This document shows, piece after piece, positions 9,028 to 11,975 of a stretch of DNA of 64,000 nucleotides (positions are counted from its first letter, which is position 1; each line of letters opens with the position of its first letter). Origin of the DNA: Escherichia phage Eryne. Location of the stretch: the sequence record PQ529420. One strand, 5' to 3'. Under the pieces are notes generated by a model. It was given only the letters and a program-made list of their open reading frames with translations. It was not told the origin of the DNA and made no database searches. Position numbers and translations under genes: made by a program.

Positions 9028-10155
9028 ATGAAATACACGATTTATGGTGATATTGTAAGTGTAAATAAAGATATGGGCGTGGAATCTAACTATCTTCCAC
9101 CTGGATTCTATACTGTTAGTCGTGATCCCCTTGGCAATTATTTTTTAAGCCGTGGTAATCTGACAGGTGTACCGGATGTTCTGTATGGTGAAACAGAAAA
9201 ACGAGCAAATCACGTTATCCGTACATTCCATCGCCGGAGTGCACAAGGTAAAAACACAGGCTTGCTTCTGACAGGAACTAAGGGTAGTGGTAAAACTATG
9301 TTAGCCAAACTCATTAGTCGTGACCTTGTAGAAGAAGGTGTTCCAACTATTATGGTTACTCAAGCCTACAGTGATGCTAATTTCATTGAACTTATTAGCA
9401 AAATTACCGACAAAGCAGTGATTATTTTTGACGAGTTTGATAAAGTATATGAGAAGAAACAAGATCAAGAAGCACTTCTCACTTTGTTAGATGGTACTGG
9501 CAGTGGTAATAAACTGTTTATTCTGACTAAAAACAGTGGCTTTATCTCTGAATTCTTTTTAAATCGTCCTAGTCGTGTGTTTTATAATTTTAATTATGAT
9601 AAAATCTCACTAGAAACTATGATGGACTATTTAGATAAAAACCTGGATAACAAAGCACACTTTGATAATTTCCAAAGACTTTGGGATGTAAGTTTAGAGT
9701 TGTCCTTTGATGTGATCCAAGGTATAGTAGAAGAACTTAATTTCTATCCTGATTTATCCTTTAAAGAATGCATCTCTATGATGGGCGTTTCTTTGGGTGG
9801 TGGTAATAAATGGGATATCAGCAGCGTTGTTATTAATGGAAAACTTCAGAAAGTTAGCTGGGTATCTAGTTGGCATAACTTTACACCTGCAATCTTTTTA
9901 GGTGGTTCGTGCACACTAGACGTGTACTTGTCATCTCCAAGTGATGCAGACTCTAAAGAAGCCCTTGCTAATAGCTCTTACGTGGTTTTTGATGATGAAG
10001 GCGATGCTCGAATTCCATTGAATGCGACAAAAATGAAAGCAGATCTTATCACAGGCGGTAAAATCGTTGTGTTTAGTGATGATCCAGAAGATTCTTTCCG
10101 TATTGTTCTGGAACCAACTATCACCAATGGTGCAACTTTGGCAAGTGTGTTTTAA
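9028..10155 (+). CDS. P-loop (AAA+-like) ATPase
   Basis: Walker A GTKGSGKT and Walker B IIFDEFDK; RBS AAAGGGG. Confidence 0.6.
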   Translation: MKYTIYGDIVSVNKDMGVESNYLPPGFYTVSRDPLGNYFLSRGNLTGVPDVLYGETEKRANHVIRTFHRRSAQGKNTGLLLTGTKGSGKTMLAKLISRDLVEEGVPTIMVTQAYSDANFIELISKITDKAVIIFDEFDKVYEKKQDQEALLTLLDGTGSGNKLFILTKNSGFISEFFLNRPSRVFYNFNYDKISLETMMDYLDKNLDNKAHFDNFQRLWDVSLELSFDVIQGIVEELNFYPDLSFKECISMMGVSLGGGNKWDISSVVINGKLQKVSWVSSWHNFTPAIFLGGSCTLDVYLSSPSDADSKEALANSSYVVFDDEGDARIPLNATKMKADLITGGKIVVFSDDPEDSFRIVLEPTITNGATLASVF

Positions 10156-10170
10156 GTAAGCCAGCAAATA

Positions 10171-10196
10171 AAAACCCGCTTCGGCGGGTTTTCTTG
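10171..10196 (+). terminator. rho-independent terminator
   Basis: Hairpin acccgcttcggcgggt followed by T-run. Confidence 0.65.
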
Positions 10197-10229
10197 CATT
10201 AATGCCAGATTTAATAAGAGGAGTAGTAG

Positions 10230-11423
10230 ATGGCAGCACCAAAATCATGGGAACAATATAAAGAAGAGTGTCAACCTATTGCGAATAATAAAGGGATTGA
10301 GATCCTAGGATATGTTGAACCGTTTATAGGTTGTGATACGAAAATGATTCTACGCTGTAGGCAGGAGCATGAATGGAAGACTTGTAGTATTAGTAATTTC
10401 AAGCACGGTAACAGTTGTCCTATCTGTTCTGGTAAGAAGCCGTTAACATGGAAAACAGAATTGCCGATCTTGGAAGAGATAGCACAGAAGAAGGGGTATC
10501 AGGTGTTAGGGTACGTTGGAGAATGGAAAGGGAATAAAACAAAACTTGATTTGTTGTGCCATTGTGGGAATAGATGGCAAAGTACAGCAATTCATCAATT
10601 TAAAGGCGGTCGAGGTTGTCCACAATGTAGGGGGGAGAATACAAGGAAGGCACTAACAATGTCCGACGATCAACATATTGCAGATTTCTTTTCTACAGGG
10701 AAATTTAAGGAAGGCACTATCTTCACTAACACAGGAACACGGAGTAAAGGATGCAGGCATAGTATCTGGATGGTTGAATGTCCTGTTTGCTCTCATGATG
10801 AATATGTTCAAGCAGGTGTTTGTGATGGTAAATTTTACTCTGAAGGAAATAACCTTAAACGAGGGTGCATTCCGTGTCGTTGTGGGAACTATCGGTATAC
10901 AGAAGACCAGATCACCTATAGGGTAAAAAAGGAAGTAGAAGGGCAAGGGTATGTCTGGGTAGGTTGGATCGGTAAACCGTCTAGAAGTCACGGTAAGTTT
11001 AAATATCTTTGTCTTGTGCATGGGGAACAGACAGGGAGGGCTAATAACTTATTAAGCCTCGGTCAAGGTTGTCCACAGTGTGCTGGTCATAATCAACAGC
11101 AATTATATATTAATATTGTTAAAGATAATGATATTATAGTGGCTCTTAAGTTTGGTATAGCTAAAGATAGTGATAGGCGATTAAATAGTCAAAATAGTTG
11201 TAATATGTTTTTTATGGAGCGTATTTGTTTATATGATTTTAGCACAGTGAAACAATGTAAGGCTGCTGAAAGAGCTATAAAGAAAAAATTAAAAACTGGT
11301 ATTTTAACGGAAAGAGAGTTGAAAGACGGTTATACAGAAACAGTAAGTGTTTCTGATTTGGAAAATCTTCAAGAAATTATTACACAATATGGTGGCAAAT
11401 TAGTATACAGTAAGGAGATGTAA
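10230..11423 (+). CDS. multi-zinc-ribbon protein with GIY-YIG/T5orf172-like C-terminal region (tentative)
   Basis: Five repeated ...GxGCPxCxG Cys pairs (CPICSG, CPQCRG, CPVCSH, CIPCRCG, CPQCAGH); C-terminus ...ALKFGIAKDSDRRL...; RBS AAGAGGAG. Confidence 0.5.
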   Translation: MAAPKSWEQYKEECQPIANNKGIEILGYVEPFIGCDTKMILRCRQEHEWKTCSISNFKHGNSCPICSGKKPLTWKTELPILEEIAQKKGYQVLGYVGEWKGNKTKLDLLCHCGNRWQSTAIHQFKGGRGCPQCRGENTRKALTMSDDQHIADFFSTGKFKEGTIFTNTGTRSKGCRHSIWMVECPVCSHDEYVQAGVCDGKFYSEGNNLKRGCIPCRCGNYRYTEDQITYRVKKEVEGQGYVWVGWIGKPSRSHGKFKYLCLVHGEQTGRANNLLSLGQGCPQCAGHNQQQLYINIVKDNDIIVALKFGIAKDSDRRLNSQNSCNMFFMERICLYDFSTVKQCKAAERAIKKKLKTGILTERELKDGYTETVSVSDLENLQEIITQYGGKLVYSKEM

Positions 11424-11975
11424 ATGCGGATTACTGATAAGTATGTGTTCTTCTTCTCGGCAAAAGATGAATTTAGCAACTGGTATCTATCATCTTTTAT
11501 TGAACCTTTAGCTCCCAAGTATAATAATTCTATTACAAGTTCTGTTGAATTTACTTGTGTGGAACAATATATGATGTGGAGAAAAGCATGTTTGTTTTAT
11601 GATTACAACATTGCATCTTCTATTTTAACCGGAGATCTAAGATATACAGGAGAAAAAGAACAGGCATATTATAAGCGACTAGGTAGATTAGTTAAAGATT
11701 ACGATGAAGCTACTTGGACTTCTTTACGGGAGAAGATTGTCAAGCGTGGTTTGTATCTTAAATACACACAAAATGAAGATCTCAAAAATAAACTTATAAC
11801 CTACGCAGATAAGGAGTTCGTAGAGGCAAGCCCTTATGATTCTATTTATGGTATCAAAATGGGGATGTGGGATCGTGATGTGGAAAATAAGGACTGTTGG
11901 AAAGGACAAAATCTTTTAGGAAAATGGCATACAGACCTTGCTGTTTATCTAAAAACACAATCTGATATTTCCTGA
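11424..11975 (+). CDS. NADAR-family (YbiA/DUF1768-like) protein
   Basis: VFFFS...FSNWY...EQYMMWRKA...NLLGK pattern typical of the NADAR domain; start overlaps upstream stop. Confidence 0.55.
   Translation: MRITDKYVFFFSAKDEFSNWYLSSFIEPLAPKYNNSITSSVEFTCVEQYMMWRKACLFYDYNIASSILTGDLRYTGEKEQAYYKRLGRLVKDYDEATWTSLREKIVKRGLYLKYTQNEDLKNKLITYADKEFVEASPYDSIYGIKMGMWDRDVENKDCWKGQNLLGKWHTDLAVYLKTQSDIS

Follow-up and report, generated by a model that had tools for sequence, protein, structure and literature searches.

Three genes lie next to each other on the plus strand of the DNA studied here, and the question they raise is whether they work together. The window, the whole 64-kb stretch analysed, belongs to a Justusliebigvirus (phi92-like) phage of E. 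coli. An earlier note on it had joined a P-loop ATPase, a multi-zinc-ribbon protein and a NADAR protein into a three-gene module for counter-defence or DNA repair against DNA ADP-ribosylation. We consider it likely, instead, that three early genes of a phi92-like phage lie side by side here, each with its own role, and do not make up a module.

Gene layout, transcription units and slot content

The three plus-strand open reading frames were confirmed at the coordinates given for them (9028-10155, 10230-11423 and 11424-11975), and their domains (ATPase, zinc-ribbon/GIY-YIG and NADAR) were upheld by profile searches, the GIY-YIG assignment also by a structure search. The features of the locus are:

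9028-10155, plus strand: AAA+ ATPase, 375 aa; orthologue of phi92 gp221, phrog_2376
10171..10197, plus strand: intrinsic terminator; stem AAAACCCGC / GCGGGUUUU, UUCG tetraloop, U-rich tail
10216-10223, plus strand: SD of the nuclease gene, AAGAGGAG
10230-11423, plus strand: predicted CapR/T5orf172 nuclease, 397 aa
10230..11099, plus strand: DNA-binding half of that gene, with four zinc-finger repeats of the CapR type
11100..11423, plus strand: T5orf172 / GIY-YIG domain, aa 291-397 plus stop codon
11412-11417, plus strand: SD of the NADAR gene, AAGGAG, within the nuclease gene
11424-11975, plus strand: NADAR, predicted AdfN-type, YbiA class, 183 aa

The ATPase is the final gene of an upstream plus-strand operon that begins near 7508. 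Between it and the nuclease gene stands a terminator hairpin at 10171-10192 with a U-tract (-17.8 kcal/mol, z -3.18 on folding). Schickermooser and Klebsiella phage phi1_175008 have an equivalent terminator, annotated or visible, at the corresponding position. With a strong intrinsic terminator after the ATPase gene, the trio does not form one transcription unit. The whole trio had been placed between the terminator and the noncoding repeats, which is right for the nuclease and NADAR genes, but the ATPase gene lies upstream of the terminator. Nor do the last two genes overlap at stop and start, as had been proposed; the TAA stop of the nuclease gene (11421-11423) abuts the ATG of the NADAR gene (11424), with zero shared bases. 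Given an SD inside the upstream gene and an abutting stop and start, these two genes are predicted to be translationally coupled. The nuclease and NADAR genes would then share a transcript and occupy a variable accessory slot just downstream of the ATPase terminator, while the ATPase would belong to the upstream operon and stand next to the slot only through lineage-specific gene order.

Searches for further elements were negative. We found no sigma-70-like promoter between the terminator and the nuclease start, no tRNA and (by tblastn) no paralogue of the three genes in the 64-kb window, no Rfam family at E<=0.1 across 7000-14500, and no Pfam family in the four upstream operon ORFs and three downstream ORFs.

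Co-conservation in related phages was a point on which the earlier note had itself made the module depend, and it does not reach beyond close relatives. When 160 viral loci were scanned with HMMs, 80 centred on the ATPase and 80 on NADAR, the trio turned up only in Stephanstirmvirinae. A NADAR gene lay within 10 kb of the ATPase gene at one of the 80 ATPase loci (Phapecoctavirus-like), and an ATPase gene was near NADAR, 6 kb away, at one of the 76 NADAR loci outside the subfamily; in phage CBB the two are 175 kb apart. Inside the subfamily, the trio is adjacent and on one strand in both genera that infect E. coli, Justusliebigvirus and Phapecoctavirus. The content of the slot varies by lineage: nuclease and NADAR; nuclease, a 121-aa protein, a 59-aa protein and NADAR in Phapecoctavirus; and, in subfamily members from Klebsiella, a 113-aa protein with DUF6939 or a 113-aa protein with a one-repeat nuclease. 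DUF6939 (205 aa), which fills the NADAR slot of Klebsiella phage phi1_175008, was considered as a divergent NADAR and rejected as unsupported; it scores below threshold against the Pfam model of DarT1-associated NADAR (E 0.012), and comparing it as a profile with the NADAR alignment gave a negative result (probability 0.2%).

The NADAR protein and DarTG1

The NADAR assignment holds, both for Pfam PF08719 (3.8e-36, 125.3 bits against a cut-off of 35.1) and for NCBIfam TIGR02464 (110 bits against a cut-off of 73.7), a model of the 'riboflavin biosynthesis intermediates N-glycosidase' domain. The protein shares 98.4% amino-acid identity with its orthologues in Bas60, Bas62 and phi92. On alignment with the P. 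nicotianae NADAR structure 8BAU, its E47, K54, K84, R88, Y93 and E134 correspond to E43, K50, K75, R79, Y84 and E125, so that all six ADP-ribose-site residues are kept; E47, K54, K84 and E134 are invariant across 34 homologues. The last-strand catalytic position is Glu (E134) rather than Asp or His, which places the protein in the YbiA class; residue roles and the class rule follow published work (PMC11543638, PMC11125620).

An anti-DarT function is known for AdfN^Bas60, the NADAR of the BASEL phages Bas60/61/62 described by Johannesman et al. 2025 (PMC11825919). Expressed alone, AdfN^Bas60 neutralised DarT1 and rescued RB69, T5 and Bas25 on DarTG1 hosts; it was without effect on DarTG2, and T5 was not rescued on a DarTG2 host. 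The assay was ectopic expression rather than deletion from the phage's own genome (PMC11825919). We infer that AdfN^Bas60 is bas60_0111, because the paper places NADAR in Bas60-62 and because of the locus annotation and the count over the whole collection (717 places in 716 records). It is orthologous to the window NADAR, at the same locus in the same genus, with three residues different, and both come without a DarT partner. The window NADAR is thus an orphan, phage-encoded and without an adjacent DarT toxin; its neighbours are the nuclease gene and non-coding repeats, and no ART-family match was found in the flanking ORFs scanned. T4 AdfN (gp30.3) differs from it in having His at the catalytic last-strand position, and requires the T-even context, unlike NADAR of the AdfN^Bas60 type. 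The HIDEN-SEQ preprint covers T4 only and holds no data on the phi92-like group.

Because the 98.4%-identical orthologue was tested experimentally, the window NADAR is, by analogy, probably an AdfN-type DNA guanine ADP-ribosylglycohydrolase that counters DarTG1. Host DarT1 would ADP-ribosylate guanines in replicating phage DNA, and NADAR would cleave the N-glycosidic bond, remove the ADP-ribose and allow replication to continue, acting without a phage partner. The earlier idea of NADAR as counter-defence against guanine ADP-ribosylation therefore held, but the counter-DarTG1 function is already known and published for the orthologue (PMC11825919). A metabolic role, as a YbiA-like N-glycosidase that acts on reactive riboflavin-pathway intermediates and not on ADP-ribosylated DNA, is very unlikely. 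The protein passes the riboflavin-glycosidase model TIGR02464, bears the class-defining Glu of YbiA, and is labelled YbiA-like N-glycosidase in BASEL. However, its orthologue protects phages from DarTG1 and neutralises DarT1 inside cells (PMC11825919), guanine-ADP-ribose is hydrolysed in vitro by NADARs of several classes, YbiA itself included, and there are no riboflavin genes near the NADAR gene.

The middle gene and its variable DNA-binding half

The protein encoded by the middle gene had been described as having five repeated GxGCPxCxG zinc-ribbon units. Five CxxC knuckles are indeed present, at aa 63, 130, 184, 213 and 281, but only three of the five fit G-x-(G/S)-C-P-x-C-x-G exactly, and they group into four CapR-domain repeats (aa 1-70, 71-140, 141-222 and 223-290), the third an atypical variant with two CxxC. 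CapR PF21817 matches in four stretches (1.1e-38, 131.7 bits against a cut-off of 24.2), and a DNA-binding role of the CapR motif has been shown for PLE CapR (PMC8096241). The C-terminal match to T5orf172 PF10544 (aa 298-356, E 2.2e-4) passes by a small margin, at 22.1 bits against a cut-off of 20. T5orf172 is missing from most of the family's precomputed Pfam annotations, and the nuclease domain is therefore a divergent member. A structure search supports the GIY-YIG fold, a three-stranded sheet with flanking helices. Across 32 homologues, with identities as low as 22%, Y293, K307, G309, R317, E347 and E370 never vary; they would include the catalytic Tyr, Arg and Glu of GIY-YIG enzymes, a mapping that depends on their position within the fold. 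Sequence comparison also shows homology to ICP1 ORF165, with 32% identity across 60% of the protein, and the corresponding gene is annotated as a putative homing endonuclease in those records.

The partners of NADAR had been called uncharacterised. This is not wholly so, because the middle gene belongs to the described class of CapR/T5orf172 HEGs (Barth et al. 2023, PMC10448857; Netter et al. 2021, PMC8096241). Like HEGs of the ICP1 gp165/gp174 type, it joins an N-terminal array of CapR repeats, with paired Cys motifs, to a T5orf172/GIY-YIG domain at the C-terminus; its repeat number is altered by recombination, and it lies where conserved DNA meets variable DNA. The same architecture and changes of repeat number through recombination have been reported for T5orf172 HEGs, as has their location at genetic-exchange boundaries (PMC10448857). 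The window nuclease has four repeats and is mostly single-copy at a fixed locus, unlike a multi-copy HEG family. We thus read it as a nuclease of the homing-endonuclease type whose four CapR repeats would read a long DNA site, which the T5orf172/GIY-YIG domain would cut. The anatomy, fold and conserved catalytic residues are observed; cleavage and target are presumed from them.

The two halves of the gene evolve differently. In windows along the DNA-binding half, nucleotide identity to relatives ranges from 27 to 97%, against 95-100% in the flanks, and climbs back to 92-93% near the junction with the nuclease domain. The DNA-binding half has a dS of 0.22-1.35, against 0.03-0.15 in the flanks, that is 3-12x the flanking values, with dN/dS at 0.28-0.53 and so below 1; the corresponding dS values are 0.10-0.20 for the nuclease domain, 0.07-0.15 for NADAR and 0.03-0.11 for the ATPase. 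Related nucleases are 203 to 669 aa long, their lengths differing in steps of about 68 aa. Judged by these comparisons, the DNA-binding half is a hypervariable cassette swapped by recombination. Repeated exchange of the array, with changes in the number of repeats, may retarget the nuclease, while the nuclease domain and both flanking genes stay nearly constant.

Whether the nuclease still moves is a separate matter. Its gene is missing at the orthologous site in Klebsiella phage phi1_175008. All Justusliebigvirus and Phapecoctavirus genomes inspected carry it intact, which would suit a domesticated function no less than active homing. One possibility, which we hold only tentatively, is that the protein has lost homing and been domesticated as a nuclease or DNA-binding regulator. 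Its target might be a satellite or a competing phage, as for ICP1 Odn, or it might act as a transcriptional repressor, as PLE CapR does; an arms race with the target would drive diversification of the zinc-finger array. The fixed position of the gene, its mostly single copy (one place in most records among the matches listed), its intact state throughout the inspected genomes of the two genera, and the pairing of a hypervariable DNA-binding half with a conserved nuclease half agree with this, and Odn and CapR are precedents (PMC10448857; PMC8096241). In addition, the related coliphages Inny and Muut carry other T5orf172 nucleases, for which satellites are proposed targets (PMC10448857; PMC8096241). 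However, clade-wide presence also fits a HEG that has recently gone to fixation, and mosaic DNA-binding domains are described too for HEGs presumed active (PMC10448857).

Somewhat less probable, and on balance doubtful, is the proposal that the nuclease and NADAR genes make up a two-gene mobile cassette. The nuclease would cut genomes that lack it, repair would co-convert flanking DNA, and the downstream counter-defence gene would hitch-hike and so spread or be retained. This proposal is compatible with the reading of three genes with separate roles, to which it adds a claim of linkage. It draws on the stop of the nuclease gene abutting the NADAR start, with the NADAR SD inside the nuclease gene; on the presence of both genes in one post-terminator unit in two genera; on post-terminator cargo that varies by lineage, one lineage holding a one-repeat nuclease; on a dS that declines away from the DNA-binding cassette through nuclease domain, NADAR and ATPase; and on HEGs reported at genetic-exchange boundaries (PMC10448857). 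Against it, there is no sign of recent inter-genus transfer: identities between the two genera (NADAR 56-59%, nuclease 37-54%) are no higher than that of the ATPase (64%). In Phapecoctavirus, moreover, two unrelated small genes split the nuclease from NADAR, and a CapR/T5orf172-like ORF lies within 10 kb in 6 of 76 NADAR loci outside the subfamily, which is chance level in HEG-rich large phages.

The ATPase and the case for a module

The ATPase carries a Walker A motif (GTKGSGKT) and a Walker B motif (IIFDEFDK), and matches Pfam AAA (1.2e-9) and the phrog_2376 'ATPase' family (2e-107). A small N-terminal beta domain precedes an AAA+ core (~aa 50-255) and a C-terminal beta-rich domain (~aa 260-365), and K89, T90, D135, E136, N169, R180 and R183 are invariant. 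With Walker A/B, sensor 1, Arg fingers and the AAA+ fold, it falls in the classical clade of AAA+ proteins and probably works as a ring-forming remodelling ATPase; it is widely conserved. Compared with BCS1, Trip13/Pch2, NSF-D2, Rix7/NVL, PAN and the FtsH ATPase module, it lacks a protease domain and any other known effector, it alone has the N- and C-terminal beta domains, and the pore-loop aromatic residue is not conserved in its family consensus. Orthologues have been labelled FtsH-like protease; the M41 zinc-protease domain with HEXXH is absent. The labels 'Zn metalloprotease' and 'replicative helicase' are likewise unsupported.

A separate, broad clade of environmental phages has homologues of the ATPase directly downstream of genes for NAMPT (NadV), NadM-Nudix and a macrodomain-like protein, the adjacency to NadV being seen in a single cluster at 50% identity or more. 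On this gene order one could suppose that the phrog_2376 family is a dedicated, unrecognised component of phage NAD+/ADP-ribose counter-defence, which we think improbable. If true, the place of the ATPase next to the NADAR slot would not be accidental, though NADAR can act alone. PADLOC gave a weak P-loop match for the ATPase and a candidate-system NADAR model for NADAR; therefore, none of the three genes belongs to a known defence system.

The same environmental clade, with its NAD+-salvage and macrodomain-like genes, and the adjacency of the trio on one strand in both E. coli-infecting genera are what speak for the three-gene module. The two-genus synteny is real and would, by itself, leave room for some cooperation among the three genes. 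However, the ATPase is cut off from the other two genes by a terminator, the orthologue of NADAR acts by itself (PMC11825919), linkage is absent outside the subfamily and broken inside it in Klebsiella phages, and the nuclease, in contrast to its neighbours, evolves by cassette swapping. The terminator, the limitation to Stephanstirmvirinae, the varying slot and the Phapecoctavirus insertions together tell against a functional trio, and we give the module very little chance.

The usefulness of these results lies mainly in annotation, and current understanding is unchanged. More than 50 phi92-like genomes carry the published anti-DarTG1 factor AdfN under the labels 'hypothetical', 'GTP cyclohydrolase II' or 'YbiA-like N-glycosidase', and the 'FtsH-like protease' label of the neighbour is wrong. 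The locus is also a clean natural case in which a zinc-finger array is swapped between almost identical genomes beside a counter-defence gene. It is therefore a convenient place to test how homing-type nucleases may move or protect anti-defence cargo.

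Layout of the locus

More than 50 coliphages of the genus Justusliebigvirus (Stephanstirmvirinae), among them arall, PD06, muut, phi92 and the BASEL phages Bas60 and Bas62, share 93-99% DNA identity with the whole window, which places it in a phi92-like myovirus genome. Three consecutive plus-strand ORFs lie where the earlier note had placed them, with gp221, gp222 and gp223 as their phi92 counterparts:

9028-10155, plus strand: ATPase ORF, 375 aa
10230-11423, plus strand: nuclease ORF, 397 aa
11424-11975, plus strand: NADAR ORF, 183 aa

The second and third genes had been described as overlapping at stop and start; instead, the TAA at 11421-11423 abuts the ATG of the third, whose Shine-Dalgarno sequence (AAGGAG) is at 11412-11417. 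The terminator, AAAACCCGC-UUCG-GCGGGUUUU with a U-rich tail (-17.8 kcal/mol, z -3.2), does not precede the genes as a group, as had been proposed. It sits between genes 1 and 2, leaving the ATPase on its far side. Public annotations of the orthologues conflict from record to record: the ATPase is labelled 'FtsH-like protease', 'ATPase or Zn metalloprotease', 'replicative helicase' or 'regulatory inactivator', and the NADAR 'GTP cyclohydrolase II', 'YbiA-like N-glycosidase' or 'hypothetical protein'. Several nearly identical genomes carry the name 'Campylobacter phage' in their deposits.

Directly 3' of the NADAR gene is an AT-rich (24-30% GC) non-coding stretch, 11976-12400, which is kept in related phages and annotated with repeat_regions in tuntematon. 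Within it, three repeats of about 75 nt and 72% identity stand in direct orientation (12174-12252, 12241-12319 and 12316-12394), each with the motifs TTATTTAAAGTTTTT and GAAAATGAAAAGTTCAA; ATTTTTATAAAAAG occurs at 11992 and again at 12174. An origin, a promoter array and a nuclease target are candidate roles. Nested, overlapping palindromes based on ATGAGAAT/ATTCTCAT, e.g. ATGATAATCATTCTCATTT, follow at 12416-12475 and are reminiscent of the E. coli Fur-box consensus GATAATGATAATCATTATC. Further on, at 12500-13100, is a patch with several GC hairpins and 47-52% GC, against 24% just upstream and 37% on average, enclosing one ORF:

12737-13003, minus strand: 88-aa ORF inside the GC-rich patch

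The ORF matches no Pfam family, and the patch has neither an Rfam match nor a DNA match among 5,426 complete E. coli genomes.

The ATPase gene and the slot behind it

Protein 1, with a hit to Pfam AAA (1.2e-9) and another to phrog_2376 'ATPase' (2e-107), carries Walker A (GTKGSGKT) and Walker B (IIFDEFDK) motifs, which bears out its assignment as a P-loop ATPase; we infer that it is a remodelling ATPase that forms rings. Its homologues are spread widely among large phages, whether the host is Gram-negative or Gram-positive.

Gene order in relatives does not support a three-gene module. In the Phapecoctavirus phages ESCO5, Schickermooser and tuntematon, the ATPase is followed by the terminator and a nuclease gene (332-486 aa), and two further genes, of 121 aa and then 59 aa, stand before the NADAR (56-59% identical to that of the window). 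In Klebsiella phage phi1_175008, of the same subfamily, the ATPase is 74% identical, and the slot behind its terminator (locus L088, 6167-7122) holds a homologue of the 121-aa gene, 113 aa long, and then a DUF6939 protein; nuclease and NADAR are both absent. Profile comparison found no similarity between DUF6939 and NADAR. In a second Klebsiella-type contig the slot (locus L169, 5166-6115) holds the 113-aa gene and then a minimal nuclease of 203 aa that has a single CapR repeat plus a T5orf172 domain, and a more distant 154-kb contig, its ATPase 44% identical, has none of these slot genes. We also used HMMs made from homologue alignments to survey 80 ATPase-centred viral-contig loci, each taken with at most 10 kb of sequence to either side. 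Only one, Phapecoctavirus-like, contained NADAR. Among 80 NADAR-centred loci, the ATPase was found in four Stephanstirmvirinae loci and once elsewhere, 6 kb off. In phage CBB, 175 kb separate the two genes. In the survey the trio is confined to Stephanstirmvirinae, and the conserved feature is a variable accessory slot that begins just behind the ATPase terminator, in agreement with published descriptions of nuclease genes at the borders of genetic exchange (PMC10448857).

On IMG/VR contigs (loci L020-L080), the ATPase homologue lies just downstream of NAMPT/NadV in about 18-20 of 80 loci, in some of them with only 74-93 nt between the two genes. Also near these homologues are NadM-Nudix and a phrog_335 'phosphatase', itself a weak match to ADP-ribose-1''-phosphatase macrodomains (E 0.002). 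The NadV-linked loci form one broad clade (pairwise ATPase identity 45-100%), and clustering at 50% ATPase identity or more puts all of them together. The homologue follows rIIA-rIIB in about 10 loci. This neighbourhood may reflect only placement among early accessory genes.

A predicted nuclease with an exchangeable DNA-binding half

Protein 2 matches the CapR homology domain in four stretches (1.1e-38), phrog_681 'endonuclease' and T5orf172 (22.1 bits, cut-off 20), the last in keeping with the GIY-YIG/T5orf172-like C-terminus proposed for it. Of the five zinc-ribbon units also proposed, five CxxC knuckles are present (aa 63, 130, 184, 213 and 281), but they fall into four CapR repeats of about 68-82 aa, the third an atypical two-CxxC variant. 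CapR, a zinc-finger domain that binds DNA, was originally defined in a repressor of a Vibrio satellite that derives from homing-endonuclease genes of phage ICP1 (PMC8096241). Some T5orf172 homing-endonuclease genes bear one or more CapR repeats, and recombination between repeats alters their number (Barth et al., PMC10448857). ICP1 ORF165 is a direct homologue of the window nuclease. Relatives of the window nuclease fall into length classes of about 203, 325-337, 390-408, 465-486, 562 and 669 aa, as expected for between one and about seven repeats.

Among phages of the genus, identity is 99.2-99.5% for the ATPase and 97.8-98.4% for NADAR but only 65-82% for the nuclease.

Sliding-window nucleotide identity to relatives
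Up to 10229: 95-100%
10229 to about 11130: 7-97%, phage-specific mosaics
About 11130-11280: 92-93%
Beyond about 11280: 95-100%

Values as low as 7% and 27% reflect alignment gaps, because the relative there has one repeat fewer or more. In the DNA-binding half, dS is 0.22-1.35, against 0.03-0.15 in flanking genes; this cassette is therefore older than its surroundings, i.e. imported by recombination, and its dN/dS of 0.28-0.53 indicates that it is still under selection. Judged from sequence, the middle gene is predicted to encode a nuclease of the homing-endonuclease type whose DNA-binding array has been swapped.

NADAR and the relation of the three genes

The NADAR assignment of gene 3 holds in a Pfam profile search (3.8e-36). 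Johannesman et al. (Nat Commun 2025, PMC11825919) described the NADAR AdfN^Bas60, encoded by Bas60, Bas61 and Bas62. Expressed alone, it neutralises the DarT1 toxin and lets RB69, T5 and Bas25 form plaques again on DarTG1 hosts, whereas it has no effect against DarTG2, which modifies thymine; no other phage factor is required, as the authors say explicitly (PMC11825919). The window NADAR shares 98.4% identity with its counterparts at this locus in Bas60 and Bas62, AdfN^Bas60 being equated with bas60_0111 through locus and annotation. It also matches the structure of P. nicotianae NADAR bound to ADP-ribose (8BAU, E 8e-12), its E47, K54, K84, R88, Y93 and E134 aligning with E43, K50, K75, R79, Y84 and E125, which bind ADP-ribose or are required for guanine de-ADP-ribosylation. 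The Glu at the last-strand position places it in the YbiA class, whereas T4 gp30.3 has His and DarT1-linked antitoxins have Asp there. Together, the near-identical published protein and the conserved ADP-ribose-site residues indicate that the proposed counter-defence role is correct, a function already published for the Bas60/61/62 orthologue.

The earlier note thus read the ORFs, their domains and the already known NADAR counter-defence role correctly; its three-gene module is not supported. Most likely, the three genes are independent neighbours. The nuclease and NADAR would share a transcript either through insertion of the nuclease there or through hitch-hiking of NADAR with the nuclease.
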